64,000 nucleotides of DNA, taken from Escherichia phage Phi1. The stretch lies in sequence record EF437941; one strand, written 5' to 3'. Made by a program: the position numbers and the translations under genes. The notes under the pieces are model-generated. The model had not been told where the DNA came from. It did not search any database and worked only from the letters and a program-made list of their open reading frames with translations. Of this stretch, positions 926 through 28,383 are shown one piece after another. Within the stretch, counting starts at the first letter, position 1. Each line of letters starts with the position of its first letter.

Positions 926-954
926 AGTATAGGGGATCTCGCGATCCCAGTCAA
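926..954 (-). promoter_or_regulatory. early sigma70-type promoter with stem-loop in spacer (PeSL-like)
   Basis: Minus strand TTGACT-GGGATCGCGAGATCCCC-TATACT; inverted repeat fills the 17-bp spacer. Confidence 0.6.
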
Positions 955-958
955 GCGT

Positions 959-1486
959 TTATTTTAAATTTTTTCGAATGTATTCAGACCATTCCTTCCC
1001 TGTCATTTCGGACCCGTTCTGGAAACTGAAATATTCATACGGCATCGAGTCAAGATAAAACAGGATCATACATCGCGCCATATAATACCAATCACGATTA
1101 AAGTAAACTACGTTATCACCAGTACCATCAACCCCTTTATCATAACCATCGCGGGTACGGGAGACCCATTGAATAGTATCAGTTTTCTCACGGATAGTAA
1201 CAGGTTCCCAATATCCAGCACATCCAGCATGACCACACGAACAAGTAAGGAAATATTGTCCTTTTGCTTTGTTGTCATCCCATTCACGATGGATTGGTTC
1301 GATCTCGTGAAACAGTGCCAAACAATCATGATTATGCAACACTGGCTTACCATCAATCAATGCATGGAATGTATGCAAACGACCAGTAGACAAATAGCTA
1401 TCCTCACGCTCAACCAGTTCAATAGCAATCCTTTTAGCTCGTTCTTTGTGTCGTTGTGCTTTACGCTTACGGTTTAATGATTTCAT
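959..1486 (-). CDS. hypothetical protein
   Basis: Minus-strand ORF tiled between neighbours; GAGGTGA before the internal ATG chosen as start; start uncertain (959..1507 in track). Confidence 0.5.
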   Translation of the reverse strand: MKSLNRKRKAQRHKERAKRIAIELVEREDSYLSTGRLHTFHALIDGKPVLHNHDCLALFHEIEPIHREWDDNKAKGQYFLTCSCGHAGCAGYWEPVTIREKTDTIQWVSRTRDGYDKGVDGTGDNVVYFNRDWYYMARCMILFYLDSMPYEYFSFQNGSEMTGKEWSEYIRKNLK

Positions 1487-1503
1487 ATTCACCTCACACA
1501 TTA

Positions 1504-2046
1504 TCAAAGGTCGCGATATAGTACATTATGAAAATGAGAACTTGCATTACCAATATTGTAGATAATAAATTCTTCATCCGGCGCTTGCGCTACAAATTGA
1601 GTATGAGCAACCGCCACAACCTTAAAAATACGATCCGTTATCTTGTGTTTAATTTCTGCTCCTACTTCCATAGGAACATATTCCTGTGTTTCTGTTTCAG
1701 TCGCAAAACAGCCATCTTCTTCATAAGCACGAACAAATCGATCGCAATCAGTACGCTTAACAAATTCAAGAGTATACAATTCTCGTGAATTGTCGGTATA
1801 GACCAATACAGAATTATTATGATAGCGAATCACATACAGGTTATTATCATCGTCAATTACGCAAAAGCTACGGATTCCTTCGCCTTTACTCCAGCAGATA
1901 TTAACCACCGTTCCTCTAATAAAAAAACTTTCCTTTAAATTAAAACTAGTCAATGTGCTAGCGTGCATTTTAACAACAACACCATCGCCAATTTCCAGTT
2001 TACGAAGTTTAACTTCTTTGCTCAGTACACAAAACATCATCATCAT
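1504..2046 (-). CDS. hypothetical protein
   Basis: ORF with GAGAGGA RBS, directly downstream of an early promoter at ~2076-2103. Confidence 0.55.
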   Translation of the reverse strand: MMMMFCVLSKEVKLRKLEIGDGVVVKMHASTLTSFNLKESFFIRGTVVNICWSKGEGIRSFCVIDDDNNLYVIRYHNNSVLVYTDNSRELYTLEFVKRTDCDRFVRAYEEDGCFATETETQEYVPMEVGAEIKHKITDRIFKVVAVAHTQFVAQAPDEEFIIYNIGNASSHFHNVLYRDL

Positions 2047-2075
2047 GTTGTCCTCTCGTTGTTTTCGATGTGAGC

Positions 2076-2103
2076 ATTATACATTAGCTAATCACGTTGT
2101 CAA
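2076..2103 (-). promoter_or_regulatory. early sigma70-type promoter
   Basis: Minus strand TTGACA-N16/17-TATAAT, directly downstream of the nrdD terminator. Confidence 0.6.
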
Positions 2104-2107
2104 CACC

Positions 2108-2141
2108 CCAAAACGAAAAAGCCGACCCTTTCGGATCGGCT
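2108..2141 (-). terminator. intrinsic terminator after nrdD
   Basis: GC hairpin AGCCGATCCGAAAGGGTCGGCT followed by TTTTTCGTTTT on the minus strand. Confidence 0.7.
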
Positions 2142-2146
2142 AAAAA

Positions 2147-4054: not shown

Positions 4055-4549
4055 TTATTTTACCAGTTCTGCTAATTCTTTTTCTTTAGCTTCCAGTTCA
4101 GCCTTAAGCTGTTTAATCTCTTGTCGCTTCTTATTAGCGGCTTCCTGCTTACTATTTCGGATAATCTGATCTAGATACAACTCCCAATCCTGAATATTTT
4201 TGATAATATAACCGTCAACATTAATTGGTCGGATATTTAGTACAGCTTCCAGTTTAGTCGCAAAAACTTTAATTGCTGGTGTGAAGTATTCATATTCGTT
4301 ATCTTCAAACCAATAACCTAGACTTGCATTCTCAATGCGAAGACGAAGTTCAAGATCAAGGTCTTTATCTTCGGTGTAAAGATCTTGCACATGTCCCATC
4401 GAGCTAACAACAACTTTAAAACGAATTTTATCAACACCACCAAACACATCAGTAAGGATACCAGCAATTGAGCTATTAGCGCAAGATTGGTCGCTGAATG
4501 CGTCAAGGTTTTCTTTAGTTACAGTATACCAAACATCTTGTACCCACAT
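4055..4549 (-). CDS. hypothetical protein
   Basis: ORF behind stem-loop promoter ~4580-4607 with GAGAGGA RBS; C-terminal coiled-coil-like K/E-rich tail. Confidence 0.55.
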   Translation of the reverse strand: MWVQDVWYTVTKENLDAFSDQSCANSSIAGILTDVFGGVDKIRFKVVVSSMGHVQDLYTEDKDLDLELRLRIENASLGYWFEDNEYEYFTPAIKVFATKLEAVLNIRPINVDGYIIKNIQDWELYLDQIIRNSKQEAANKKRQEIKQLKAELEAKEKELAELVK

Positions 4550-4579
4550 AATATAATCCTCTCGTTGTTAAGTGGGAGT

Positions 4580-4607
4580 ATTATAGCATACTCCCTTTGC
4601 ATGTCAA
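4580..4607 (-). promoter_or_regulatory. early promoter with stem-loop overlapping the -10 (PeSL-like)
   Basis: TTGACA-N16-TATAAT; inverted repeat GGGAGTAT/ATACTCCC spans the -10. Confidence 0.6.
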
Positions 4608-5782
4608 GCACGAACTTTTTTCTTTACTGCTTTCACCTTCTGGCGAATTGCTCGAATCTCTTCGATCTCTTTTTCAGTCTCTTTAACAATTTCTTTGCGA
4701 TTCTGAATATCTGTATCGAGATTATCATCAAGTTTAGGCAGCATGTCAATCAAGAACTTTTTAAAGTCTTTCAGGTTTCGGATAACAGCACCTTCACCCA
4801 TTACCGCCACCCCTACACCATCCGGCAGATCACCAAACAGCTTAACCAGTTCAGATAGATGACCATGATCTTCTAGTGCTTCTTCCGGTTCAGATGGCAG
4901 TTCAACAAAGTAATAACGTTCATCATTGCTGATCAGGTGATACCAGCAAAGCCCAAAAGATTTAGGAGTATATTCTACACCACCAACTTCAACCGCGTCA
5001 ACACTTCCGAAAGAATCTACTTTAGTTACCTTAAATCCATGTTCCAGCGTTTTAATAATTTCAATAACATGACTGGATACGGTTTCAGTATTAAACCAAT
5101 GAGGCAAATTATGTGGATTTGGTTTGTATCGTTCGCCTACTTTAAATCTCTGACCACGCTCTTGCATACGGACATATTCAACTCGCGTGATTTCCGCGAA
5201 GTATTCAAATTCGCTACCGTCAAACAAGCAATTCCATTGATCACAAAAACGATCCGCCTTAACGGTTTCACCTTTCGCGGTGATCATGGTAGCCGACCCG
5301 TGCAATTCTTCTTCAACTAAAAAGCCATATTCGACAAAATCAACAAGTTTCATGGCTTCTTTGTGCTCTGGATCATGCTCTCCCCAGAATCGCTTAAATT
5401 CTTGCAAACCTTCCGGGGTAAACGAATAACATTTACCTTTTTCAAAGTAAGTCGGCATTGCATCCTCTTTCTTGTTCATCGCTTCGTATGCCTCTTTTGA
5501 GATACGTTTAAAGAATTTACGCTCATCGTGCATAAGCATAACAGCCCAATAATAAACGATATCCTCAGCGGAATAAACTACATCTCCAGCTTCAATAGTA
5601 ATAACATGACCGTGGTCATCTTTTTCTAATACTTTAAAGCCCTTTTCTACGATTCCAGCAACCCGAATATGACCACGGCGCGAAGCATCGGTCGGAATAG
5701 TTGAATAGCGAGAAAAGTCTAGAAACTCATCTTTACCACCTTCACGGAATGCATAGTAATGCCCTTCAAAGAATTTAGCCAT
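4604..5782 (-). CDS. hypothetical protein (paralog family A, two repeated domains)
   Basis: 392 aa; shares a GFKVL...ERKFFKRI(S/T)K domain with the two downstream-adjacent genes; stem-loop promoter at ~5814-5842. Confidence 0.6.
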   Translation of the reverse strand: MAKFFEGHYYAFREGGKDEFLDFSRYSTIPTDASRRGHIRVAGIVEKGFKVLEKDDHGHVITIEAGDVVYSAEDIVYYWAVMLMHDERKFFKRISKEAYEAMNKKEDAMPTYFEKGKCYSFTPEGLQEFKRFWGEHDPEHKEAMKLVDFVEYGFLVEEELHGSATMITAKGETVKADRFCDQWNCLFDGSEFEYFAEITRVEYVRMQERGQRFKVGERYKPNPHNLPHWFNTETVSSHVIEIIKTLEHGFKVTKVDSFGSVDAVEVGGVEYTPKSFGLCWYHLISNDERYYFVELPSEPEEALEDHGHLSELVKLFGDLPDGVGVAVMGEGAVIRNLKDFKKFLIDMLPKLDDNLDTDIQNRKEIVKETEKEIEEIRAIRQKVKAVKKKVRA

Positions 5783-5813
5783 AATATAATCCTCTCGTTG
5801 TTTAAATGGGAGT

Positions 5814-5842
5814 ATCTTACTACTCCCGTTTCATCATGTCAA
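5814..5842 (-). promoter_or_regulatory. early promoter with stem-loop (PeSL-like)
   Basis: TTGACA-N17-TAAGAT; inverted repeat GGGAGTA/TACTCCC. Confidence 0.55.
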
Positions 5843-6405
5843 GCGTTAAATGACTTTTGGATCTCTTTCAGTTCAGCTACTTTATCGGCGCTATACTTTG
5901 CTTGATGTTCCATGCGCTTAAGCTCACCTTTGATATAGGTTTCTAGCTTAGGTTTATTCTCAATCAGAAAATCTTTCAAGTCATCGGCATTTTTAAAGTA
6001 TAGCTGATTATCAAAGCTAAAATCTTCCAGCGTCAATGATACCAAAGAAGACTTCGCAAACAAGTTAATCAGATCTTCCAGAGATTCTTCTTTCTTAACT
6101 GGTTTCATTTCTTCAAACTGCTTTTTAGTGATGCGTTTAAAGTATTTGCGCTCGCTTGCATCAATCATTATTGACGCGCCCTCATAATCATGAGTTTCTA
6201 CCAAATACACTTTACCCATAACATTAACCGTAAGAACTTTAAAGCCCCGGTGAAGCACACCATACAGGAACTTGTTATGTTGTGGATAGCGTTTAACAAA
6301 TTCCTCTGCGGACTCAGAATTACGGAAAGTGTAATAACGACCTCGTTCAAAAACAGCATCATTTGAAGACTTAGACGGATACAATTTATACGTTTTCTGT
6401 ACCAT
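5839..6405 (-). CDS. hypothetical protein (paralog family A)
   Basis: Shares the N-terminal domain with 4604..5782; second ATG with AGAGGAT RBS chosen as start (track start 6423). Confidence 0.55.
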   Translation of the reverse strand: MVQKTYKLYPSKSSNDAVFERGRYYTFRNSESAEEFVKRYPQHNKFLYGVLHRGFKVLTVNVMGKVYLVETHDYEGASIMIDASERKYFKRITKKQFEEMKPVKKEESLEDLINLFAKSSLVSLTLEDFSFDNQLYFKNADDLKDFLIENKPKLETYIKGELKRMEHQAKYSADKVAELKEIQKSFNA

Positions 6406-6419: not shown

Positions 6420-6692
6420 TCATTTCACTAATTGAACAGCACGAAACAGAATGCGGTCACACGGAAGCAGCATAAATTCCCAACGCGGATCAAAGTCTTT
6501 AGCGGTGTATGTTTTCCCATCAACAGAGATTTCACTTACATAACCAATAGGTGACACTTTAAGAACAGTAAATCCATTCTTGATTGCTTCGTAGGTATCT
6601 TTCAGACCTTCGTAGTCGTCCTCTAAGAAGTCTTTACGTGCTTGCTCAGATTTAAAAACATAGGCCACGCCAGCTTTAAACATCTTACGCAT
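6420..6692 (-). CDS. hypothetical protein (paralog family A, short)
   Basis: Track ORF N-terminus overlaps the promoter at ~6724-6752; internal ATG after AAGGAGAATCAACA taken as start. Confidence 0.5.
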   Translation of the reverse strand: MRKMFKAGVAYVFKSEQARKDFLEDDYEGLKDTYEAIKNGFTVLKVSPIGYVSEISVDGKTYTAKDFDPRWEFMLLPCDRILFRAVQLVK

Positions 6693-6723
6693 TGTTGATT
6701 CTCCTTCTTGATTAGATGGGAGC

Positions 6724-6752
6724 ATTTTACTACTCCCATTTCTTATTGTCAA
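6724..6752 (-). promoter_or_regulatory. early promoter with stem-loop (PeSL-like)
   Basis: TTGACA-N17-TAAAAT; inverted repeat GGGAGTAG/GCTCCC. Confidence 0.5.
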
Positions 6753-6755
6753 CTA

Positions 6756-7229
6756 CTATCTTAATCTTTGTATGAATTGTTTCTTATACTTCTTCGTGAT
6801 TTCTTCTCGTGTATCAGCGTCGCAGTAATCGAAACCTTCTGCGTCCATAATAGCAACCATCTCCGCTCGTGTCAAGCGTGAAAATCGTTTTACTTTATCA
6901 ACGGCATATTGAGGATGTAAATGATTGTTGGTGTAGTCTCCTTTGATGTAATTAACATAGTTTGTAGCCCAAACAACGAAATCAGCACCTAAAGCACCAA
7001 CACCAAACCGTTTAAAGTCTCCGGTCAACGATCCTTCTAGGCGGTTGCAACACGAATGAAGCAATCCCCTTACGCGGCCTTGCCCTTTCCCTTCTAGATC
7101 GTGGTCGTGGTCAAGATGGTTTTTGCTCATATCCTCAAAAAGTGGCAATTGACAAAGGGGGCAAATGCCCCCCTGTTTTTCGAATAGTTCTTGTTTGTAC
7201 TCTTTAGCACTCTTAGCAGTCAGTAACAT
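6756..7229 (-). CDS. 49: recombination endonuclease VII (Holliday junction resolvase)
   Basis: Strong similarity to T4 gp49 as recalled: N-terminal Cys pair CPLC, HLDHDHDL, RGLLHSCCN; start at ATG after GGAGGGTGA. Confidence 0.9.
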   Translation of the reverse strand: MLLTAKSAKEYKQELFEKQGGICPLCQLPLFEDMSKNHLDHDHDLEGKGQGRVRGLLHSCCNRLEGSLTGDFKRFGVGALGADFVVWATNYVNYIKGDYTNNHLHPQYAVDKVKRFSRLTRAEMVAIMDAEGFDYCDADTREEITKKYKKQFIQRLR

Positions 7230-9605: not shown

Positions 9606-9914
9606 TTATTTCACATTAACGCCGTCATCAATCCAGCCGACGCTATTTGGTTTAACAGTTTTACCATAGGATGCATACTTAATCAAGCATGGTTTAACAT
9701 CATTATCAAATCTTCCTAAACGTACCCCAAGATCAGGAATATCCATGTATGCGGCTTTATATCCCCATGTGCCATATTCAGAATCAATCTCAACCGGACG
9801 GCCTTTAAAAGCATACACTACACCGTGACGGTCAACGATAACATAGCAATAACCAGCCGGAAGATACACAGTTTCGCCGTAAACTTTAACTGGAGTAGCA
9901 GAAGAGATAAACAT
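9606..9914 (-). CDS. hypothetical protein
   Basis: ORF behind stem-loop promoter ~9949-9977 and GAGGATTATATT-ATG initiation region. Confidence 0.55.
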   Translation of the reverse strand: MFISSATPVKVYGETVYLPAGYCYVIVDRHGVVYAFKGRPVEIDSEYGTWGYKAAYMDIPDLGVRLGRFDNDVKPCLIKYASYGKTVKPNSVGWIDDGVNVK

Positions 9915-9948
9915 AATATAATCCTCACATCGTTCATTTGATGCGGTT

Positions 9949-9977
9949 ATTATAGATTAACCGCATTTTCATGTCAA
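9949..9977 (-). promoter_or_regulatory. early promoter with stem-loop (PeSL-like)
   Basis: TTGACA-N17-TATAAT; inverted repeat GCGGTTA/TAACCGC around the -10. Confidence 0.6.
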
Positions 9978-9984
9978 ACAGTTT

Positions 9985-10293
9985 TTAAAAATCTTCTTCC
10001 GGTTTATATCGACCGTCATCGACTGGTTTTGGACTGAATCCGGTATGTGTGCGCGGCTTCGCTTCCGGTTTACCGGCAATCATCAAACCAAAACATTTCA
10101 GCCCTTTATAACACATAACAATATTAACCACGCTCCAAGTTATAGGCCATATAATAGAACAAATGGCATATGCTCCAATATCGACCTCTTTGGTGTCCTT
10201 GTCGAATCTGGCATACAAGCAAATTATAAGATAGGTGATCATTGCACCAGTAGGCCAAATATAAAGCACATTAACAATATCTTGTGTTGTCAC
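9985..10293 (-). CDS. hypothetical membrane protein
   Basis: Two to three hydrophobic segments; tiled minus-strand ORF. Confidence 0.45.
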   Translation of the reverse strand: MTTQDIVNVLYIWPTGAMITYLIICLYARFDKDTKEVDIGAYAICSIIWPITWSVVNIVMCYKGLKCFGLMIAGKPEAKPRTHTGFSPKPVDDGRYKPEEDF

Positions 10294-10302: not shown

Positions 10303-10581
10303 CTACATGTCTTGCAGAGCATAAAAGCATTTTTCTTCGTAGTCATAGAAAATGTCAAAGTATGCTTTTTCTACATACTCACCATTGATCCAAGCGGCAG
10401 TAACAATCAGAGTGGTCCAGTTAGATCCGCTCTCAACGGTAAAGGTTTTAATACCCAGCTTAACAGCCAAGTCACGAGCAAACTGGTCGCAACCACGACA
10501 GGATGTGATATTGGAAGTTTTGATTTTAAAGCCACCGCGAGTTTTAGAAATTTCTACTTTAGCGAAAGACAGGTTGCTCAT
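10303..10581 (-). CDS. hypothetical protein
   Basis: ORF behind stem-loop promoter ~10624-10652 and conserved AAGGAGAATCAAA-ATG region. Confidence 0.55.
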   Translation of the reverse strand: MSNLSFAKVEISKTRGGFKIKTSNITSCRGCDQFARDLAVKLGIKTFTVESGSNWTTLIVTAAWINGEYVEKAYFDIFYDYEEKCFYALQDM

Positions 10582-10623
10582 TTTGATTCTCCTTAAGAAA
10601 GTATGTTTCGTTTTGATGTGTGT

Positions 10624-10652
10624 AGTATAGGGGATACGTGATCCCCTGTCAA
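10624..10652 (-). promoter_or_regulatory. early promoter with stem-loop in spacer (PeSL-like)
   Basis: TTGACA-GGGGATCACGTATCCCC-TATACT. Confidence 0.6.
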
Positions 10653-10659
10653 CAACTTT

Positions 10660-10965
10660 TTATGATTTTAGTGAATTAACTACTACATCAAAATGATGTA
10701 CAGAGTACACCTTACGAAACACGTATTCATCATGTTTAGGAATCGCCCCTAACCGCTCTATTTCGCTCGCTGACACGATAAACCGCTTATCTGGTGCATT
10801 TACCTTATATGCTTCAACAACGCACGGAAAACGCGTTTTAGCGAGTTCTGGATAGTTTTCCGAATCCATCAGGACAATGAATACCCTATTACATTGATTG
10901 TAGAATCCTGTTTTTGATTTCATCAAGTTTTCTTCTCTGTGAAATTCGTGCAATCTTCCTTTCAT
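10660..10965 (-). CDS. hypothetical protein
   Basis: Tiled ORF; start ambiguous (track 10989), overlaps the upstream gene. Confidence 0.4.
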   Translation of the reverse strand: MKGRLHEFHREENLMKSKTGFYNQCNRVFIVLMDSENYPELAKTRFPCVVEAYKVNAPDKRFIVSASEIERLGAIPKHDEYVFRKVYSVHHFDVVVNSLKS

Positions 10966-11487: not shown

Positions 11488-11504
11488 AATATAATCTCAA
11501 TTAG

Positions 11505-12624: not shown

Positions 12625-12886
12625 TACATGCTTTTAATGCATCGGTCGCGGTGTCATAGCGAGTATTATCATAGCACCAATAACCATCTGTCAACTGATA
12701 AATTAATCCATCCTTTTTAGCTTCGATGAAAGACAACTCTTTGAAAGTTTCTACTTTCTTTGCTGATACTCCACGGTCACGGCGTTTATAGAGTTTAGCT
12801 AAAATGCGTTCAGCTTGTTCCTCTTTATCGCCAGACAGATCCCAGATGATGCTTCGGATATGCTTGATTAATTGTTCAGTGGTCAT
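12596..12886 (-). CDS. hypothetical protein
   Basis: ORF behind TTGACA-N16-TATAAT promoter at ~12916-12943 and AAGGAGAATCAAAG-ATG. Confidence 0.55.
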   Translation of the reverse strand: MTTEQLIKHIRSIIWDLSGDKEEQAERILAKLYKRRDRGVSAKKVETFKELSFIEAKKDGLIYQLTDGYWCYDNTRYDTATDALKACNDHLRKTTI

Positions 12887-12915
12887 CTTTGATTCTCCTT
12901 AGTTGGTATGCGTGC

Positions 12916-12943
12916 ATTATAGCATTGTGATTATCTTTGTCAA
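12916..12943 (-). promoter_or_regulatory. early sigma70-type promoter
   Basis: TTGACA-N16-TATAAT directly downstream of the terminator. Confidence 0.6.
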
Positions 12944-12946
12944 CAC

Positions 12947-12982
12947 CCAAAAAACAAAAAAGGCTATCCCGAAGGATAGCCC
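12947..12982 (-). terminator. intrinsic terminator after the gp38-like gene
   Basis: Hairpin GGCTATCCTTCGGGATAGCC followed by TTTTTTGTTTTTT on the minus strand. Confidence 0.7.
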
Positions 12983-12988
12983 ATAAAA

Positions 12989-13765
12989 TTACACGCGAGC
13001 ACCGTAGATCGTGCCTACTTTATCCCAACGAGGGGCATTACCAGTAACGGCTTTACCAGCAGCACCACCGTTATATTCTGTACCGTTACCCTGAGTATTA
13101 CATCTTCCTCCAGCAGCACCAACGTTACCTCCAGCACCGCCTGTATATGCACTAAGAGACCCCGAACCAACAGATCCTTTACCTGGAGCGGAAATGGAGC
13201 CAGCGGTTGCACCAGAACCCATATTAGAGGAAGACCCACCAGCACCGAATGGGCGACCACCGCCACCACCAAATACTAGTATACCCCTGTTACCGCCACC
13301 ACCACCGCCACCGCCGCCAACGATAGCACCGTTATTTGTAATTCGTAGACGTGTACCGATAGCGTTATTGATTGCGTTTCCACCAGCAGCGCCAGCAGCG
13401 TTACTACCACCATTACCCCCACGTCCGTAGACAGTCACACCGGAGTTAATGATCAATGTTACATATTCGTTTGTTAACGAGCTAGGGAAGTCAAGACAAG
13501 GAACGCCAGTAGAATGAGAAACAATATTACCAGTGATAGTAATTACTACCGGAGTAGATCCTTGTGCTTTCATCCAGTTAATAAGAGTGTCTTTATTGTA
13601 AGAGTTACTAGCACCAATGCTATAATGAATCTCTTTAGAGCGTCCGACCATTGCCGACATATACGCCGGACGACCTAAGCGTACAGCTTGCATTGCGGCG
13701 CTCATCCACCGTTGACCAGTCTCGGACACCGCAGATGATCCTACCCATCCAGAAGATATTGCCAT
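12989..13765 (-). CDS. 38: glycine-rich protein, gp38-like receptor-recognising adhesin (T2-type architecture)
   Basis: N-terminus GWVGSSAVSETGQRWMS followed by several poly-Gly motifs separating short variable segments; about 258 aa; flanked by hairpins. Confidence 0.55.
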   Translation of the reverse strand: MAISSGWVGSSAVSETGQRWMSAAMQAVRLGRPAYMSAMVGRSKEIHYSIGASNSYNKDTLINWMKAQGSTPVVITITGNIVSHSTGVPCLDFPSSLTNEYVTLIINSGVTVYGRGGNGGSNAAGAAGGNAINNAIGTRLRITNNGAIVGGGGGGGGGNRGILVFGGGGGRPFGAGGSSSNMGSGATAGSISAPGKGSVGSGSLSAYTGGAGGNVGAAGGRCNTQGNGTEYNGGAAGKAVTGNAPRWDKVGTIYGARV

Positions 13766-13819
13766 AAAATTTCCTCACAAGAAAAGCCCCAATTAAGGGG
13801 CATTGATTGATAATATTAC

Positions 13820-14041
13820 TTAGATGACCTCTGCTTCACCATCCAGGAAGAAAGACCATGTTTTGTTAGGATAGCGAAGCGCCCATGATTCAGCAGTTTT
13901 AACACCAGCTTCGAACAATTGACGGCTGGTTACTTTAGCCATACCATCTTCGATGGCAACGTTTTCAATAATCATCGGGTACTTAGCGCCACGCATGAAA
14001 CCGAAACCAGCGGAAGATTTGATAATTTTAACAGTTGCCAT
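13820..14041 (-). CDS. hypothetical protein (paralog family B-like)
   Basis: Start at ATG after AAGGAGAATCAAAA; KII...GFGFM...YPMIIEN pattern resembles 11227..11487. Confidence 0.55.
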   Translation of the reverse strand: MATVKIIKSSAGFGFMRGAKYPMIIENVAIEDGMAKVTSRQLFEAGVKTAESWALRYPNKTWSFFLDGEAEVI

Positions 14042-14080
14042 TTTTGATTCTCCTAGAAAGTGTCGTGTTTCGATGGGTGT

Positions 14081-14109
14081 ATTATGCAATAACACCGGAA
14101 CGATGTCAA
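14081..14109 (-). promoter_or_regulatory. early promoter (PeSL-like)
   Basis: TTGACA ... CATAAT with a GT-rich inverted repeat; conserved leader follows. Confidence 0.5.
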
Positions 14110-14127
14110 CACTTTCTAAGAAAAATT

Positions 14128-14412
14128 TTAAATTAATCGAATATAGCCCAGAATTTCAGCACCTTTAGCTAGTCCTAAAACCTCCCATTCAAGGTCGCCG
14201 TAGTCATAATTTGCAACCATCAGTTCACCGTTTTTCATGCAGCAATCATGAGAGAAAATTTGCCCCGCATAAACTACGATAGTAATAAACTTTCCTGATT
14301 CTGGCGGTATGGAAGACAAAGCGACCATATGACCATTCAGCTTAGTCACCAGTGATGGAACAATAAAATTCGGGCTTACCTGAATACCGTTAAATTCGTT
14401 TGTGTCTTTCAT
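14128..14412 (-). CDS. hypothetical protein
   Basis: Tiled minus-strand ORF. Confidence 0.45.
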   Translation of the reverse strand: MKDTNEFNGIQVSPNFIVPSLVTKLNGHMVALSSIPPESGKFITIVVYAGQIFSHDCCMKNGELMVANYDYGDLEWEVLGLAKGAEILGYIRLI

Positions 14413-15094: not shown

Positions 15095-15293
15095 TCTTCA
15101 CGGTCTCCATAATTGTTTTGTAAGCCAGTTTAAGATGATCACCGAAAAACTTTGCAGTGTTACCCTTCGGATCGCGGAGCATGGTTTCTACGATCTCATC
15201 GGCAGTAACAATTTCTCCTTTCTTTGCTGCATGTTCTACCATATACTTCAAAGTTTCTTCGGAAGCAAGTGCTGCGGCTACTGGATTAATCAT
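15084..15293 (-). CDS. hypothetical protein
   Basis: ORF behind promoter ~15320-15350 and conserved AAGGAGAATCAAA-ATG. Confidence 0.5.
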   Translation of the reverse strand: MINPVAAALASEETLKYMVEHAAKKGEIVTADEIVETMLRDPKGNTAKFFGDHLKLAYKTIMETVKNAK

Positions 15294-15319
15294 TTTGATT
15301 CTCCTTTGTTGTCGATGTG

Positions 15320-15350
15320 TGCATTATGCTATACCATGATCCGGTTGTCA
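15320..15350 (-). promoter_or_regulatory. early promoter
   Basis: TTGACA then -10-like TATAGCATAAT; conserved AAGGAGAATCAAA-ATG leader follows. Confidence 0.5.
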
Positions 15351-15354
15351 ACAC

Positions 15355-15388
15355 CTAAAAACGAAAAAGCCACCCTTTCGGATGGCTT
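15355..15388 (-). terminator. intrinsic terminator
   Basis: Hairpin AAGCCATCCGAAAGGGTGGCTT plus TTTTTCGTTTTT on the minus strand. Confidence 0.7.
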
Positions 15389-15702
15389 TTGATTATATTT
15401 TATTCACGTCCATTTGTATAGTAGTGTTTGAATCGACCGTAACCAGTTTCAATGGTCATTGTTCTTTGGTGAACAATAGCCCAATAACCGTTACAGGAAT
15501 ATTGCAGATACAAATCTTTACCTTTCATAAACTCATTAAAGATTGTTTCTGCCAGTCATAATAGACAACATCTTCAAGTTACCCATCCATGCGGGTCTTC
15601 CGATTCGGCAGTAATTGAACACGCGAAAGTATGAGGAAGCCAAATGGTTGTGTTAATGCTAGTTTTCTTTTACTTCTGGTATGTATCCCACTGTGACTAA
15701 CA

Positions 15703-18577: not shown

Positions 18578-19168
18578 TCAATAGCGTTTAGTCTTAAGAA
18601 TGCCTTTACTCTTTAGATGGTTAGCCTTTTTTAGTACGTCATCAGCATAACCTAATCCGGCTTTATAGTTCCATCCAGCATTGTAAGAAGCTAGCGCGAG
18701 TCGGATATTACCGTTTCGAATATCCAGCCAGTATGCTAACTCATCCATCGCGTAGAATGCAGAAACCTCGCGATTCATGATAAAGTTGATAGTCTGGCGA
18801 TCACTCATTTTAACACCACGCTTTGCATTTTTCGCTTTCACCGTTTTAAGGTAATTTTGAAATAATCCATAAGCATGATGATTTTTCTTTGGTGCTAAGT
18901 TTGCACCCGCGCTTGATTCTTGCCATGCGATACCCGCTAGGATGTGGCCTAAACCCTTTCCGTTATAGCGAATATTCGGATGGTACTTTTTCAACTTACC
19001 GCTTTTCTCGAATTGCTCGCCGTATTGATAGGCGAAATGTAAATTATCTAGTTGGTGTGCTGTAAAGTTGTCTATCGGCGCTTTTTTGATCGGTGCGCTA
19101 GTCGATGCGTGTGTAGCACCAACGGCTAGTGACAGACTCAATACTATCGCTTTTAGAACTTTTAACAT
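18578..19168 (-). CDS. lytic transglycosylase-like (SLT domain) protein with signal peptide
   Basis: Signal peptide then AGIAWQESS...YGLFQ, resembling the SLT catalytic Glu-Ser and GLMQ motifs. Confidence 0.6.
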   Translation of the reverse strand: MLKVLKAIVLSLSLAVGATHASTSAPIKKAPIDNFTAHQLDNLHFAYQYGEQFEKSGKLKKYHPNIRYNGKGLGHILAGIAWQESSAGANLAPKKNHHAYGLFQNYLKTVKAKNAKRGVKMSDRQTINFIMNREVSAFYAMDELAYWLDIRNGNIRLALASYNAGWNYKAGLGYADDVLKKANHLKSKGILKTKRY

Positions 19169-19254
19169 TAATTTCTCCTGTTTGGCTTAACTTTCTGATT
19201 CCATAATATAGCCCTATCACCAGAAAGTCAAGCATTATTTTTAACCAATTTCCA

Positions 19255-19719
19255 TTATTGGTCTACCTTCAAAACAACCGCCGACATTTTACCCGCCAGT
19301 CGTTTTGGATTCTCTATAATCATTCGGCAGCATAGACCGTGATATGGCTTACCCTCTTCGATTAGATCTACTGTCATCCCGATCCACATGTTACCGTCAG
19401 TAATTTCTAATCGATTAGGTCGGTCTTCCATTTTCAGGAAGTCGAAGATCTCCGGCAAACGAGTTTCTATCTTATTGAATAGTTCCATTGTCTTATGTTC
19501 ATCAATATGACGATCGGTTAGACGGTCGATCATATGCGGACTAAAGCGAATGAAAATATACTCACCATAACCATCATTCAAGCACTTTTCTTTGATCTTC
19601 GCATTGGTTTTGCGCATTTCGGTTTCGAAGAATCTACGCAGCTTACTACGGCGAACATGTACGTTAATTGTTTCCATTTTATTATCCTTTCTTAAACAAA
19701 TTGCGAATCCAGTATACAA
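19255..19719 (-). CDS. hypothetical protein
   Basis: Tiled ORF; true start may be the internal ATG (METINVH). Confidence 0.45.
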   Translation of the reverse strand: MYTGFAICLRKDNKMETINVHVRRSKLRRFFETEMRKTNAKIKEKCLNDGYGEYIFIRFSPHMIDRLTDRHIDEHKTMELFNKIETRLPEIFDFLKMEDRPNRLEITDGNMWIGMTVDLIEEGKPYHGLCCRMIIENPKRLAGKMSAVVLKVDQ

Positions 19720-20017
19720 ACGGGATTTCTTTAAACTTGAATTTCTCTATAGTTAATTCTTTAGTAGCAAGATGAATACCATAAGCATCATGTGTCACGA
19801 TATGCCATTTTCTATAGTCCAAATGTGAACAACCGTCTGGATCTAGGTTAATAAGAGTTTCTCGCTCACTAGGATTATTTTTCCACAATTTTGTAATAGG
19901 ATCGCACATAATTCGACCTAGCGTACCATGAATAATCTCACAACGGTAAAGTTTTCCAGCAGTGAGATAGGCGCACCCGTCATAGTCGGTATAAACAAAC
20001 ACTTCTTTAACACTCAT
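19682..20017 (-). CDS. hypothetical protein (paralog family C)
   Basis: GCSHL...W motif shared with 20075..20335 and 20317..20511; start after AAGGAGTATTAAA behind promoter ~20046-20074. Confidence 0.5.
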   Translation of the reverse strand: MSVKEVFVYTDYDGCAYLTAGKLYRCEIIHGTLGRIMCDPITKLWKNNPSERETLINLDPDGCSHLDYRKWHIVTHDAYGIHLATKELTIEKFKFKEIPFVYWIRNLFKKG

Positions 20018-20045
20018 TTTAATACTCCTTTGTTTCGATGGGGGT

Positions 20046-20074
20046 ATATTACTACCCCCGTTTTGTTGTGTCAA
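20046..20074 (-). promoter_or_regulatory. early promoter with stem-loop (PeSL-like)
   Basis: TTGACA-N17-TAATAT; inverted repeat GGGGGTAGTAAT/ATACCCCC. Confidence 0.55.
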
Positions 20075-20335
20075 CTACTTTTTCAAGATTTTTTTAATTG
20101 CGTTCCAAAGACCTTTATTCTCAGGTTGTTTTGGTTCTTCGATCAGTGTCCAGGTTCGACCGTCTAAGTGTGCACAATTTTTAAGACAAATAAAAATCTG
20201 GTGTCCCTTATCATCACGGATATAACCACTATTCGCAAATCTTTCATGTGGTGTATATTCATACAGTGTATTTGGTGTAATATACTTGCGGTTACTATAA
20301 GGTGTCATCACATACATCATGGTACTAACTCCCAT
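20075..20335 (-). CDS. hypothetical protein (paralog family C)
   Basis: Shares the C(A/S)HL-D-x-(R/K)-x-W motif. Confidence 0.5.
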   Translation of the reverse strand: MGVSTMMYVMTPYSNRKYITPNTLYEYTPHERFANSGYIRDDKGHQIFICLKNCAHLDGRTWTLIEEPKQPENKGLWNAIKKILKK

Positions 20336-24425: not shown

Positions 24426-24446
24426 AATATAATCCTCACATTAAAT

Positions 24447-24647
24447 CTAAAATTTGTTAACGACGAATTGCATAATTAGACTAATCACAAACATTGCAAA
24501 CCAAGTATAAATGCAACAGATAAAAGCTACATACAATTCAATCTGGTCAGAGAATACACCGGGTAAAAGCATTAGCAAAATAACAACAGTAAAGACGCTA
24601 GCGATACCCGCAACAAAACCAATATCATTTTTACTAATCGTCATCAA
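24447..24647 (-). CDS. small membrane protein
   Basis: 66 aa, two TM helices. Confidence 0.45.
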   Translation of the reverse strand: MMTISKNDIGFVAGIASVFTVVILLMLLPGVFSDQIELYVAFICCIYTWFAMFVISLIMQFVVNKF

Positions 24648-24853
24648 GTCACCGTTTTGTAAAGAAACACAATAAAATCCAAGACAAGAAAGACAGTGTA
24701 AATGATCATCGTCAAGACAGTAAACACTGTCAAATTTTCATCGTTAGTTAATTCATAGTCGCCCATCCATACAATCACAAGATATAGCATTGAAAGAATG
24801 GAAGCACCTACGAAGTTAAAAAACATATTCTTGAGCGTCATATTAACAACCAT
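24644..24853 (-). CDS. small membrane protein
   Basis: 69 aa, two TM helices; ATGA overlap. Confidence 0.45.
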   Translation of the reverse strand: MVVNMTLKNMFFNFVGASILSMLYLVIVWMGDYELTNDENLTVFTVLTMIIYTVFLVLDFIVFLYKTVT

Positions 24854-25033: not shown

Positions 25034-25360
25034 TTAGAAAGAAACAGTTTTCAAGAAATCCAGATTTTCAGTACCGAAAACAGAAAAGTAGTGTTTTCCT
25101 TTTTCGGTTTTAGAGAAAGCGATTGTCTTCTCTACATGGTGACGGAAGCCAGACAGACGATCACCCAGGTCAAGGCGGCAAGCGTAAGTAGTGCCGTTTT
25201 CGAAAGTAACCTCGATTTGAGTTTTGTCATATTCGCTTTCATAGGCTTTTGCTGCCGCGTCCTGTGCTTTACGCTCGAAGTCTTCGAAGTGGAATACTTC
25301 GTTTGCGTTAGCGAATACAGAAGATTCAGAGAAGATAACTTTAACAGATACTGGTTTCAT
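25034..25360 (-). CDS. hypothetical protein
   Basis: ORF behind stem-loop promoter ~25403-25431 and AAGGAGTATCAAA-ATG. Confidence 0.55.
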   Translation of the reverse strand: MKPVSVKVIFSESSVFANANEVFHFEDFERKAQDAAAKAYESEYDKTQIEVTFENGTTYACRLDLGDRLSGFRHHVEKTIAFSKTEKGKHYFSVFGTENLDFLKTVSF

Positions 25361-25402
25361 TTTGATACTCCTTAGTAGTTCGTGTTTCGTTTCGATGGGT
25401 GT

Positions 25403-25431
25403 ATTATGCTATACACCCTCTTGTGTGTCAA
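25403..25431 (-). promoter_or_regulatory. early promoter with stem-loop (PeSL-like)
   Basis: TTGACA-N17-CATAAT; inverted repeat GGGTGTAT/ATACACCC around the -10. Confidence 0.55.
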
Positions 25432-25439
25432 CAACTTTT

Positions 25440-25628
25440 TTAGTCTTTTTTCATAATTTCTAGAGCAGTTTCTACAGCACCTTTCCAACCCTCCCACATA
25501 ATGGACATAGTAATGAAGTTAAAGCACCCGCAGGAATCAACCTTTTTAGAGATAAACCATTCAACAAATCCTTCGCTCATACCATGCTCTTTAGCGGATT
25601 CGCGTAATTGTTCAATTTGGTCTTCCAT
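25440..25628 (-). CDS. hypothetical protein
   Basis: Tiled ORF. Confidence 0.45.
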   Translation of the reverse strand: MEDQIEQLRESAKEHGMSEGFVEWFISKKVDSCGCFNFITMSIMWEGWKGAVETALEIMKKD

Positions 25629-25637
25629 AGTATCACC

Positions 25638-25826: not shown

Positions 25827-25836
25827 ATTACCCCCA

Positions 25837-26064
25837 TTATAGTTGATCAGCAATGTATGCGGTGCATTTGCGGAGTTTAGCCATAGCACCACCTTTCATG
25901 TCGCTTGCGCCTACAATGTTCATGATCTCTAAGCGATCAGCCGGATTCAGTCTAGTAGCCCAGATCTGGTTAGCCAGTTCCATTTTACCCATCTGCGGTT
26001 CCATCTCAAACAGTTCACGCTCAAAGTCGATAATTTCTTTTGCGGCGTCTTTAAAGTTAATCAT
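25837..26064 (-). CDS. hypothetical protein
   Basis: ORF behind stem-loop promoter ~26094-26122. Confidence 0.5.
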   Translation of the reverse strand: MINFKDAAKEIIDFERELFEMEPQMGKMELANQIWATRLNPADRLEIMNIVGASDMKGGAMAKLRKCTAYIADQL

Positions 26065-26093
26065 TTTGATTCTCCCGTTTCGTTGATGGTTGT

Positions 26094-26122
26094 ATTGTAG
26101 GGGAGTTATCCTCCCCTGTCAA
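26094..26122 (-). promoter_or_regulatory. early promoter with stem-loop in spacer (PeSL-like)
   Basis: TTGACA-GGGGAGGATAACTCCCC-TACAAT. Confidence 0.6.
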
Positions 26123-26130
26123 CACTTTTA

Positions 26131-26316
26131 TCAGAAATATGCAATATAGTTTGCCAGTCCTACAGAGTCATCATTCGGCATTGCTTTTACTGCCAGTTCA
26201 AACCCTGCTTCAACTTTCTGTTTAGCGGATTCTTCGTTATAACCCCAGATTACCAGAATAGCTACTACGTTTTCTTTGCTTACTGCTTTCAGTGCTTTAG
26301 TGATGCGACGTGCCAT
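26131..26316 (-). CDS. hypothetical protein
   Basis: ORF behind promoter ~26363-26391 and conserved leader. Confidence 0.5.
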   Translation of the reverse strand: MARRITKALKAVSKENVVAILVIWGYNEESAKQKVEAGFELAVKAMPNDDSVGLANYIAYF

Positions 26317-26362
26317 AATTTGATTCTCCGTTTAAGAAAGTGTGTTTCGTTTCGATGGGTGT

Positions 26363-26391
26363 ATTATGCTATAGGCCGGATCTGGTGTCAA
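26363..26391 (-). promoter_or_regulatory. early promoter
   Basis: TTGACA-N17-CATAAT followed by the conserved leader. Confidence 0.5.
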
Positions 26392-26417
26392 CAACTTTTT
26401 TAAAAAAATTTTAGGCA

Positions 26418-26447
26418 ATAAAAAAGCCACTCCGAAGAGTGGCTTAT
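26418..26447 (-). terminator. intrinsic terminator
   Basis: Hairpin AAGCCACTCTTCGGAGTGGCTT plus TTTTTTATTGCC on the minus strand. Confidence 0.7.
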
Positions 26448-26590: not shown

Positions 26591-26594
26591 ACTA

Positions 26595-27228: not shown

Positions 27229-27316
27229 CAGATCATAAGAAAACCCAACGCAATAAGAATTGCATCAAATTTAGTGAACTCCGGTCCACCTATCAACATC
27301 ATTCGTTCCTGTTCAG

Positions 27317-27559
27317 TTATAGATCACAGAGCCATCTTAAAGCACCACATAAAGCGAGCAGAATACTAGGTATAAACGAGATCAAAACAAGTTTGCAAAA
27401 ATCATCTAAGGTAACACCGGAATAGCTACCAACTGTAACAACACCGATCATAAGACACAGAAAGAAAACAAATGCAATCAGAAACAAAGTATTGCTAAAC
27501 AGTTTAGTGATCATTAGACACCCCACGACGGTCAATTTCAAAAACTTTTTTATCATCAA
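27317..27559 (-). CDS. small membrane protein
   Basis: 80 aa, hydrophobic. Confidence 0.45.
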   Translation of the reverse strand: MMIKKFLKLTVVGCLMITKLFSNTLFLIAFVFFLCLMIGVVTVGSYSGVTLDDFCKLVLISFIPSILLALCGALRWLCDL

Positions 27560-27707
27560 CGAAGCATGTCACAACTGCCTCGTTGACTTCCGCAAATTGT
27601 TGTGTTACCCACTTAAGGTCAGATCGAAACAATGTTCTATTAATAACAAATGTTTTACCGCTCTTATCCTTACCCATAAATTTTGCTTTAACCATATCCA
27701 ATTCCAT
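27504..27707 (-). CDS. hypothetical protein
   Basis: Soluble 67-aa ORF, tiled. Confidence 0.4.
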   Translation of the reverse strand: MELDMVKAKFMGKDKSGKTFVINRTLFRSDLKWVTQQFAEVNEAVVTCFVDDKKVFEIDRRGVSNDH

Positions 27708-27719
27708 ATTATCACCTTA

Positions 27720-27878
27720 TTTGCTAATCGCTAAACCTAATCCGAAGAGAGCACCCGACGCTACAGTATACCCGAAAGTTTCAAAGGCAGTAAAGATATC
27801 TAAGCCACCAGCTAACAGAGTTGCAGTAAACAGAGTACCAGCTACGAACATAAAAGTTTTACCGATAAATTTCATTTT
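27720..27878 (-). CDS. small membrane protein (~52 aa, below ORF-track cutoff)
   Basis: ATG after AAGGAGAATCAAA directly behind stem-loop promoter ~27907-27935; coordinates approximate. Confidence 0.4.
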
Positions 27879-27906
27879 GATTCTCCTTTCGTTTGTTTGT
27901 GGGGGT

Positions 27907-27935
27907 ATCTTACTACCCCCGTTTCATGTTGTCAA
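27907..27935 (-). promoter_or_regulatory. early promoter with stem-loop (PeSL-like)
   Basis: TTGACA-N17-TAAGAT; inverted repeat GGGGGTAGTAAGATACCCCC. Confidence 0.55.
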
Positions 27936-27941
27936 CTATTT

Positions 27942-28316
27942 TTAAGAATATTTTACTTCGTCTACAATGTCTTTCATGACATTGATTTCCATTCCGGTCA
28001 GAACACGTTGGAACATGTGCTGAACATACGCTTTCAGGTATTCATTTGATGGCTTGCTATCGAAAGTCTTTTTAGTGTAGTAGTCATCACCGAAAGCTAC
28101 TGTAATTACATTTTCGTCGTCGTTCCAAGCGATATAAGCAAATTTGCCGTTATCCCAGAAGCGAGCACTAATTGCTACTTTTGTTGAATCGAATCCTACT
28201 TCGCTGTGAGATTCAAGAACTACTTGCGTGCCAGTTTCTTTATGAATGTAGTAGCGGGATACTAAGTCAAAGTTACGGGTGTAGTGACATTCGAACTTAT
28301 CTTTAAACATCATCAT
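27942..28316 (-). CDS. hypothetical protein
   Basis: ORF behind promoter ~28355-28383; start at ATG after GGGAGAATCAAAA. Confidence 0.5.
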   Translation of the reverse strand: MMMFKDKFECHYTRNFDLVSRYYIHKETGTQVVLESHSEVGFDSTKVAISARFWDNGKFAYIAWNDDENVITVAFGDDYYTKKTFDSKPSNEYLKAYVQHMFQRVLTGMEINVMKDIVDEVKYS

Positions 28317-28354
28317 TTTTGATTCTCCCAAGTGTTTTTCGTTTCTATGTGTGC

Positions 28355-28383
28355 ATTATGCTATAGTCGTTTATGGTTGTCAA
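28355..28383 (-). promoter_or_regulatory. early promoter
   Basis: TTGACA-N17-CATAAT directly downstream of the terminator. Confidence 0.5.

Follow-up and report, generated by a model that had tools for sequence, protein, structure and literature searches.

Promoter-plus-hairpin cassettes in the early minus-strand region of Escherichia phage Phi1 as probable promoter-early stem-loop elements

The window analyzed here, a 64,000-nt stretch of Escherichia phage Phi1 DNA (record EF437941), is 96 to 98% identical to the Krischvirus genomes Whisky, Cognac, KFS-EC, RB49, GEC-3S, and JSE. On its minus strand lie, in order, nrdG, nrdD, gene 49, nrdC, dam, gene 38, rI, tk, vs, regB, dmd, and genes 57, 1, and 3, beyond which coding switches to a plus-strand baseplate cluster. 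Within this dense array of small minus-strand open reading frames (ORFs), a promoter combined with a G+C-rich hairpin recurs as a compact intergenic cassette. The initial annotation had listed 16 such copies, and inspection of the reverse-complemented sequence at each site found all of them, on the minus strand and where they had been placed; the positions it gave are plus-strand positions of the final base of the −10 hexamer (with 15320 properly 15323), and its end point, 28383, is where the last −35 begins. Every copy is intergenic and precedes a ribosome-binding site and an ATG, which begins 28 to 46 nt 3′ of the −10 in 16 of 16 cases. The downstream ORFs encode 50 to 392 amino acids and are mostly hypothetical. 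The copies are designated c954 to c28383 (Table 1).

All copies share one order of parts: an A/T-rich stretch, (G)TTGACA, 16 to 17 bp, a TATAAT-like hexamer, a CAT(C)GAAAC-type start region, and either GGAGAATCAAA(A)ATG or GAGGATTATATTATG. The promoter consensus is (G)TTGACA-N16/17-[T/C]A[T/A/C][A/G][A/C]T, and it is preceded by AAAAAGTTG- or AAAATAG-type sequence or by the T-run of a terminator. Exact matches to TTGACA-N15-19-TATAAT number four, compared with 0.10 expected. A loose σ70 scan was rejected as a census, with 73 to 85 matches per 20 kb compared with 56 to 58 in shuffles; because it was too noisy, a profile of the whole cassette was used instead. An nhmmer profile of the 16 copies recovered its seeds at E values of 1e-10 to 1e-18 and made one further match, on the plus strand at 42542-42624 (E 4e-10), giving a 17th member at about 42.5 kb; nothing else in the window fell below E 0.1. 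Leave-one-out profiles recovered all copies, at E 5e-16 to 6e-3. In all 17 copies the −35 matches the consensus at 5 or more of 6 positions, the spacer is 16 or 17 bp, and the −10 is NANNNT with at least four of six matches. A hairpin of at least 9 kcal/mol strength (−9 or stronger) lies within −60 to +14 in 16 of the 17 members, compared with 7 of 91 other promoter-like matches (Fisher p 8e-13). The seven hairpin-bearing controls include two more composite elements, at 51590 on the plus strand and 33296 on the minus strand; another lies at 19231 on the minus strand, and promoter-plus-hairpin elements in the window number about 20. The profile, leave-one-out, and hairpin-enrichment results support, at the level of sequence, one coherent family. 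The copies had been called near-identical, which overstates their likeness: over 105 nt, pairs of copies average 44% identity and never exceed 68%, and the longest exact word common to two cassettes is 11 nt at the median and 32 nt at most.

As a whole, the repeated motif is very probably best explained as the published promoter-early stem-loop (PeSL) cassettes of the RB49-like Krischvirus phages, compact intergenic regulatory modules here strung along an early minus-strand hyperplastic region. The identification is taken as correct because Arbiol et al. 2010 (PMC2839356) describe exactly such elements in RB49 and phi1. Each of the sequence features of a PeSL is matched: a σ70 consensus promoter, A/T-rich upstream sequence, a stable stem-loop (often GGGG...CCCC) whose position varies, a Shine-Dalgarno sequence with ATG at the 3′ end, and clustering before small ORFs of unknown function. 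The hairpin of c10652, GGGGATCACGTATCCCC, is base for base that of RB49 PeSL211/210, as seen by comparison with the RB49 ORF211/210 intergenic region, and cassettes orthologous to those of the window are present in RB49 itself. Together with the agreement in anatomy and the 96 to 98% identity to Krischvirus, these findings bear out the match to RB49-like PeSLs that had been suggested at the outset. The motif is thus real and already known: PeSLs are published, and the GenBank record of the close relative GEC-3S annotates promoters, −10/−35 signals, or terminators at 15 of the 16 orthologous sites, while the G37-3 record annotates several of the hairpins that surround a −10 as ARNOLD terminators. 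A scan of the whole window against Rfam gave no family at the gathering threshold. In RB49 and phi1 the PeSLs number 51 to 52 copies per genome, fall into five subclasses set by the position of the stem-loop, which may be in the spacer, over the −10, over the −35, upstream, or 3′ of the −10, and stand mostly in hyperplastic regions ahead of ORFans (PMC2839356). Activity of the PeSL206/205 promoter was about 13,000 Miller units, and the PeSL211/210 stem-loop cut lacZ expression to an extent comparable to rrnB T1; PeSL-to-PeSL mini-circles were detected by inverse PCR in RB49 and phi1 infections and sequenced, with one crossover mapped within a hairpin loop (PMC2839356). The RB49 early promoter consensus is consistent with 5′-end mapping of early transcripts, and neither MotA nor middle promoters were found in RB49 (Nolan et al. 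2006, PMC1524935).

The hairpins occupy one of three places in the cassette. They had been described as forming or overlapping the 17-bp spacer, with five copies regarded as stem-less relatives. However, only c954, c10652, and c26122 have the hairpin in the spacer (class A). Seven copies carry it around the −10, with the hexamer in the loop and the 3′ arm forming the −6 to −1 region (class B), and six, the plus-strand member among them, have it wholly upstream of the −35 (class C); c14109 shows a weak 5-bp version of the class B arrangement. The five supposedly stem-less copies (2076, 12916, 15320, 26363, and 28355) each possess a G+C-rich hairpin of 7 to 11 bp and a T-run, ending 13 to 36 nt upstream of the −35, and class C as a whole has 7- to 12-bp G+C-rich stems, GAAA- or TTCG-type loops, and a T-run. 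Internal and upstream hairpins exclude one another: no copy has both, ten have only an internal hairpin, five have only an upstream one, and one has neither (Fisher p 0.0014). In classes A and B the G-rich arm is always 5′, and class C stems have no such polarity; on the sense strand, a GAAAC- or GAAAT-type A-rich spacer precedes the class B hairpins. The stem sequences are diverse (GGGAG, GGGGG, GGGTG, GCGGTT, GGGGAT, GGGGAG, and CGGGGA). Measured from the −35, the stop codon of the preceding gene is at −4 to +8 nt in class A and B cassettes, at +18 in the weak c14109, and at a distance of 43 to 48 nt in class C, and we ascribe the placement of the hairpin to the space available between this stop codon and the −35. 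At c4607 and c5842 coding and promoter sequence overlap, with the TGA within the −35 TTGACA being the stop codon of the upstream ORF (4602-4604 and 5837-5839, respectively, minus strand).

Conservation of the hairpins was assessed from alignment columns of orthologous cassettes in nine Krischvirus genomes. Variable columns make up 4 of 150 in stems (3%), 9 of 58 in loops (16%), and 15 of 53 in spacer outside the hairpin (28%), with p values of 0.002 for stem versus loop and 6e-7 for stem versus spacer; the stems match the promoter hexamers in conservation. Of the four stem changes, three retain pairing via G-U, and the fourth is the loss of the outermost c6752 pair in MIZ5. The inverted repeats are conserved beyond chance, given the low variability of stem columns relative to the 16 to 28% elsewhere and the enrichment of hairpins at these promoters. 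To look for covariation, divergent relatives were sought, but phage-database matches of less than 90% identity cover only gene 38 of other genera, and the tk neighborhoods in IMG/VR yielded one Krischvirus, with the sequence family not found in 11 other T4-like contigs (tk 32 to 58% identical). With no usable divergent relatives, covariation was therefore taken from paralogues and the nine closely related genomes. Class B paralogues, aligned on the −10, fall into two registers, so a single alignment of the whole class as one helix was rejected, and each register was analyzed separately. In register 1, compensatory double changes affect three of eight pairs (GC/CG; GC/UA/AU; GC/UA), and 98.6% of cells are paired, compared with 79% in shuffled sequences and no more than 67% in slid registers. 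In register 2, one of seven pairs is compensatory and 100% of cells are paired; slid registers of both class B sets reach at most 75%. The independent compensatory events among paralogues are few, and all keep pairing. Collectively, these patterns in the alignments support selection of the hairpin as a structure.

We propose that the cassettes would work as follows. An A/T-rich, UP-like stretch and a near-consensus host σ70 promoter would direct transcription, with the A of the conserved CAT(C) as the probable start, and the short, conserved 5′ untranslated region would contain a strong ribosome-binding region, GGAGAATCAAA(A)ATG or GAGGATTATATTATG. Host RNA polymerase is expected to fire the promoter immediately after infection, as indicated by the literature on homologous or identical sequences. 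Each module has a single stable G+C-rich hairpin. If the gene upstream stops 43 to 48 nt short of the −35, this hairpin has the form of a textbook intrinsic terminator and stands between stop codon and promoter (class C); if that gene stops at most a few nucleotides from the −35, or within it, the hairpin is folded into the promoter, either within the spacer (class A) or surrounding the −10 (class B). Because the predicted start lies 3′ of the hairpin, hairpin RNA would be made only on read-through from the upstream gene. The hairpin may then terminate, attenuate, or 3′-stabilize the upstream transcript, which would render each small gene block a self-contained expression unit. In addition, the 30 to 100 nt of similarity between cassettes could provide short homology patches for the very active T4-type recombination, as has been partly shown, and these patches would lead to occasional gene conversion between cassettes and, more rarely, to gain or loss of gene modules.

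Several findings bear on the role of the hairpin in this scheme. Class C hairpins are followed by 6 to 7 T in the first 8 nt and have T-tail scores of 3.8 to 5.8, as canonical intrinsic terminators do. Conservation of the stems, exclusivity of the positions, and a start 3′ of the hairpin together favor an RNA-level role on upstream transcripts over an effect on melting of the cassette's own promoter. The occurrence of the hairpin in the spacer, at the −10, or wholly upstream, and never in two places, points to a role independent of RNA polymerase contacts. We list with the RNA-level role the gene 38 site, where G37-3 and MIZ5 have a class A cassette in place of the class C cassette of the window. 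Class B hairpins have T-tail scores of 1.7 to 3.1 on the antisense strand, higher than on the sense strand, and three are flagged on the plus strand (20037-20062, 25397-25418, and 27899-27922). Class B hairpins as terminators of antisense, plus-strand transcripts were considered and rejected, there being no plus-strand late promoter TATAAATA within 1-33000.

A number of observations weigh against reading the cassettes as PeSLs that are at once self-contained expression units and vehicles of gene exchange. On the side of expression, class A and B hairpins are followed on the sense strand by only 0 to 3 T in the first 8 nt, with T-tail scores of 0 to 1.5; because they have no sense-strand U-tract, they are poor intrinsic terminators by canonical standards, and a consensus terminator scan of the minus strand called no class A or B hairpin. 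The lacZ assay of PeSL211/210 did not distinguish termination from altered mRNA stability or translation (PMC2839356). A literature search for Krischvirus transcript mapping gave nothing relevant. On the side of mobility, positions 1-35000 were compared with eight relatives (GEC-3S, RB49, JSE, Makalu_003, an ECD7-like IMG/VR contig, G37-3, Whisky, and MIZ5). The seven relatives with loci long enough to span the array have every one of the 16 cassettes at the orthologous site, and the shorter ECD7-like locus shows its 10. Gene content differs from that of the relatives by about ten distinct indel events, nine of which are unrelated to cassettes, comprising homing-endonuclease insertions, which make up most of the events, together with copy-number changes of tandem paralogues and unrelated insertions at a distance from any cassette (Table 1). 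Only one event, involving the gene 38 module, has a cassette breakpoint, which by a rough estimate is no more than cassette coverage predicts, and with one clear case in about ten events an enrichment of breakpoints at cassettes in this region is unsupported. Moreover, the likeness of the cassettes could largely stem from selection for a consensus promoter and ribosome-binding site, and not from copying.

The alternative that follows this line furthest holds that the cassettes are only vertically inherited strong early promoters and terminators, alike through convergent or purifying selection, that they are not mobile, and that they do not shuffle genes. The orthologous, syntenic sites and the indels lying away from cassettes fit this alternative, as do the low mean identity (44%) and short common words (median 11 nt) and the presence of the GAGGATTATATTATG ribosome-binding region also before genes that have no cassette. 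We regard it as possible but doubtful, because cassettes do bear marks of exchange. Several clustered, multibase minority alleles of a single genome are identical to the allele that most genomes have at another cassette: in Whisky, c954 agrees with c10652, and c26122 with c25431 and c26391; c14109 of the ECD7-like contig agrees with c15351, and the spacer of c6752 in MIZ5 with c27935. Likewise, the loop allele of c10652 in the window is that of the distant RB49 PeSL211/210 and not of RB49's own orthologue. The gene 38 swap has its junction inside a cassette, and PeSL-to-PeSL mini-circles have been sequenced (PMC2839356). Recombinational spread, which had been deduced from the density and identity of the copies, thus stands as to the conversion-like patches and the gene 38 junction; it does not stand as to high identity or to frequent movement, since the sites are stable and one of about ten indels falls in a cassette. 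Traces of cassette-to-cassette recombination are present, and its main effect in this region is to homogenize the cassettes, not to shuffle genes.

At the gene 38 site, the window carries a hairpin, g38, a class C terminator, and promoter c12943. The module is absent from G37-3 and MIZ5, which have at this place a single class A cassette, TTGACAcggggagaaatccccgTATAAT, directly after the upstream ORF. The two versions reconverge just after the −10, at CATACCAACTAAGGAGAATCAAA, which puts the breakpoint between the −10 and +1 of c12943. A junction of this type is expected under the PeSL model, and the gene concerned is one for host range. Positions 12985-13640 (gene 38) show 80 to 87% DNA identity to gp38 of T4-like phages in other genera (86.7% for PaulHMueller, for example); such cross-genus matches, with none for the rest of the region, suggest horizontal exchange of a host-range module.

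Other variable loci in the compared region were noted. The tandem paralogous small ORFs at 11227-11702, 12388-12585, and 24447-24853 have about 70% DNA identity, and their copy number varies in Krischvirus, which accounts for several of the region's indels. The insert at 30927-31937 places 1 kb between genes 3 and 2 and is absent in six of the seven relatives covering the site, where JSE and G37-3 have a different 1.1-kb insert; a minus-strand ORF at 30925-31977 encodes a 350-residue protein with a CapR homology domain (PF21817, E 2.5e-10), and the insert adjoins a bidirectional terminator-like hairpin at 30900-30920. Between rI.-1 and the c15351 terminator, about 300 bp (15400-15700) hold no annotated gene in any relative. 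A 154-bp version of part of this gap (15438-15592) is peculiar to the window, all eight relatives sharing a different stretch of about 72 bp, and a 42-codon ORF lies within the gap at 15400-15528.

The ribosome-binding region of the cassettes raises a further alternative. GGAGAATCAAA occurs exactly before start codons in nine cassettes, compared with 0.5 expected, and GGAG is found in 12 of 16. It agrees at 10 of 11 positions with GGAGRAYARAA, the consensus of strong RegB/S1 cleavage sites as determined for T4 (PMC3014915), and a regB gene lies in the same region (Table 1). The hairpins might then be mainly posttranscriptional 3′ barriers coupled to RegB, which would cut both read-through and primary early mRNAs at GG^AG, while the upstream hairpin shields the upstream cistron from 3′-5′ exonucleases; class A and B hairpins would be stabilizers, not terminators. 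Both the want of U-tracts in classes A and B and the G-U-preserving stem changes, which suit an RNA structure, are in keeping with this. However, RB49 RegB, one of the divergent RegB sequences (PMC3014915), may not have T4 specificity; GGAG followed by an A-rich tract is also a plain strong ribosome-binding region; and an identical class A hairpin lowered expression of downstream lacZ without RegB (PMC2839356). The paper describing the PeSLs makes no mention of RegB (PMC2839356). We consider this account rather unlikely.

More speculatively, and with still lower expectation that it holds, sequence features alone would allow the cassette to be a three-part unit for making and inactivating mRNA, composed of a promoter, a RegB site (GGAGAATCAAA), and a hairpin barrier, with patch conversion homogenizing the signals and occasionally swapping gene 38-like modules. 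The promoter would launch the downstream gene, and a RegB cut at GGAGAATCAAA would shut the same gene off; the single hairpin, put where space allows, would insulate the upstream cistron and stabilize it after the cut. The class A and B hairpins, which have no U-tract, would in that case not be true terminators.

The remaining alternatives fit the cassettes less well than does a PeSL whose hairpin acts on upstream RNA. The stem-loops had been thought possibly to modulate promoter melting, and more generally they could act on their own promoter as DNA, through hairpins or cruciforms or through a G+C-rich spacer or discriminator that tunes melting or supercoiling sensitivity. In classes A and B the repeat does overlap the spacer or the −10 and discriminator, and the class B 3′ arm makes −6 to −1 C-rich, a preference of RB49 early promoters (Nolan et al., PMC1524935). 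However, the position of the hairpin varies, among mutually exclusive sites, and may fall outside the promoter: five family promoters (six with the plus-strand copy) have the hairpin fully upstream and no internal repeat, and even within class B its position relative to the hexamers shifts between registers. Stems of 6 to 9 bp, as found here, are too short for stable cruciform extrusion, and the compensatory and G-U-preserving changes point to pairing of a single strand, most simply RNA. The melting proposal is therefore not supported, and we judge a DNA-level role very improbable. Scarcely credible, finally, is the speculation raised by Arbiol et al. (PMC2839356) that the GGGG...CCCC hairpins are recognition sites by which a DNA-binding or structure-specific phage protein (endonuclease VII or an unknown recombinase) targets recombination, for although the 5′ arm is always G-rich in classes A and B, a published crossover lies in a hairpin loop (PMC2839356), and gene 49 (endonuclease VII) is within the array, the stem sequences differ widely, class C stems have no polarity, the gene 38 junction falls between −10 and +1, outside the hairpin, no integrase or recombinase is associated with the cassettes, and cassette-linked indels are rare in the window.

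Table 1. Cassettes, related elements, and variable sites in the 64,000-nt window
Feature	Class	Coordinates	Strand	Details
c954	A	873..979	-	TTGACT, spacer hairpin GGGATC-GCGA-GATCCC, TATACT, GGAGAATCAAA, ATG at 883; orthologous GEC-3S site annotated as promoter
c2103	C	2039..2141	-	Terminator AGCCGATCC-GAAA-GGGTCGGCT + T-run (2120-2141), TTGACA-16-TATAAT, ATG 2046; T-tail score 3.8
c4607	B	4545..4618	-	TTGACA-16-TATAAT, 8-bp stem GGGAGTAT/ATACTCCC around -10
c5842	B	5775..5865	-	Stem GGGAGTA/TACTCCC, -10 TAAGAT in loop; the only one of 16 without GEC-3S promoter annotation
c6752	B	6686..6775	-	9-bp stem ATGGGAGTA/TGCTCCCAT with one G-U pair, -10 TAAAAT; downstream of gene 49 (endonuclease VII)
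c9977	B	9908..10002	-	Stem ATGCGGTTA/TAACCGCAT around TATAAT
c10652	A	10575..10675	-	TTGACA-GGGGATCACGTATCCCC-TATACT; hairpin of RB49 PeSL211/210
c12943	C	12882..12982	-	Terminator GGGCTATCC-TTCG-GGATAGCC + T-run (12961-12982), TTGACA-16-TATAAT; right-hand junction of gene 38 module
c14109	B, weak	14034..14134	-	TTGACA-17-CATAAT; weak 5-bp stem GGTGT/ACACC, not conserved in relatives; the one nearly hairpin-less member
c15351	C	15285..15390	-	Terminator AAAAGCCATCC-GAAA-GGGTGGCTTTT (15365-15390), TTGACA-17-CATAAT
c20074	B	20009..20098	-	Stem GGGGGTA/TACCCCC, -10 TAATAT in loop
c25431	B	25357..25452	-	8-bp stem GGGTGTAT/ATACACCC around CATAAT
c26122	A	26054..26146	-	TTGACA-GGGGAGGATAACTCCCC-TACAAT
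c26391	C	26311..26445	-	Terminator AAGCCACTC-TTCG-GAGTGGCTT + T-run (26424-26445), A/T-rich stretch, TTGACA-17-CATAAT; 32-nt exact word in common with c25431
c27935	B	27867..27955	-	Stem GGGGGTA/TACCCCC, -10 TAAGAT in loop
c28383	C	28311..28421	-	Terminator ACCCCGAAA-ATT-TTTCGGGGT + T-run (28401-28421), TTGACA-17-CATAAT
17th member (+42569)	C	42528..42632	+	12-bp terminator hairpin, TTTACA-17-TATAAT, ATG 42630; profile E 4e-10
Divergent promoter-plus-hairpin element		19168..19240	-	TTGACT-17-TATTAT in 15-bp stem including -35; no match to family profile; GEC-3S promoter annotation
Divergent PeSL-like element		51585..51649	+	TTGACT-18-TATGAT, 14-bp stem around -10, then GGAGAATCAT and ATG; no match to family profile
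GGAGAATCAAA copies		885-895, 10582-10592, 12888-12898, 14043-14053, 15294-15304, 26065-26075, 26319-26329, 27876-27886, 28318-28328	-	Exact match
regB endoribonuclease gene		19255..19677	-	PF10715, E 1e-48
Gene 38 adhesin module		12910..13820	-	Hairpin 13786-13801, g38 12989-13765, class C terminator + c12943 -35/-10
Homing-endonuclease insertions		3139/3140, 7549/7551, ~21250		Indel events
Tandem paralogous small-ORF copy-number changes		11487-12399, 24441-24838		Indel events
Unrelated insertions		22433-22457, 30927-31937		Indel events

Some of the elements outside the minus-strand array have distinctive neighbors. The plus-strand class C cassette is directly 3′ of baseplate gene 8 and heads a unit (42528-44046) with ORFs of 85, 110, and 279 amino acids, the last of which is a methyltransferase with an Eco57I-like NPPF motif (PF05175); the late baseplate cluster here contains an expression unit of early type. 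At 51585-52231 on the plus strand, the divergent element precedes an ORF for a SegE-like GIY-YIG homing endonuclease (PF19835, E 1e-6). The divergent intergenic region between gene 4 and gene 53 contains a 14-bp inverted repeat at 33262-33317, TTTTAGCACCCT.../...AGGGTGCTAAAA (fold −27.7 kcal/mol, z −6), which encloses a minus-strand TTGATA-16-TATAAT and the plus-strand late-promoter motif TATAAATA (33271-33278).

Comparison with the PeSLs of RB49 and phi1 (PMC2839356) shows the same genus and the same anatomy, with the stem-loop in the spacer, over the −10, or upstream; their density is about 20 in 64 kb here compared with 51 in 164 kb, and nothing essential differs. The published examples come from another hyperplastic region (ORF190-211), whereas the cassettes of the window are positionally stable, with one cassette-bounded indel among eight relatives. 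The PeSL-like motifs of T4/PST and KVP40/nt-1 (Comeau, Arbiol, Krisch 2014; PMC4122927) embody the same concept, an early promoter with a stem-loop at variable-gene junctions, and each is an analogue that uses the early-promoter consensus of its own phage. That the Krischvirus family was not found near tk in 11 other T4-like contigs fits this view of the motifs as analogues. T4 early promoters likewise serve immediate-early transcription by host polymerase and have an UP-like A-tract (Uzan and Miller 2010; PMC3014915), but their −35 is of the GTTTAC type, compared with TTGACA (G at −33) in RB49 (PMC1524935). The GGAG-type ribosome-binding region and A-rich tract of T4 RegB/S1 sites (PMC3014915) are also present in the cassettes, whose cleavage by RegB is putative. 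Class C hairpins resemble canonical rho-independent terminators in their 7- to 12-bp stems, GAAA/TTCG tetraloops, and T-run, whereas classes A and B differ from these in having no U-tract and in lying inside a promoter. Lambdoid morons and integron cassettes, too, are small accessory genes with their own expression signals that are gained and lost as units. However, morons are not thought to move via their regulatory sequences, and integrons use an integrase and attC; the cassettes here have no associated recombinase, and any mobility would proceed by general homologous recombination over short homology.

The window adds no new kind of element to what has been described, and the refinements that it offers are testable but incremental. 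They are the structural selection on hairpins together with their mutually exclusive positions, the rarity in this region of cassette-bounded turnover relative to events involving homing endonucleases or paralogues, the conversion patches, and the RegB-like ribosome-binding region. PeSLs are a published model for how the accessory genes of T4-type phages are organized as self-contained, exchangeable expression units. They bear on the evolution of host range, as the adhesin gene 38 sits in such a unit, and on the engineering of therapeutic phages.

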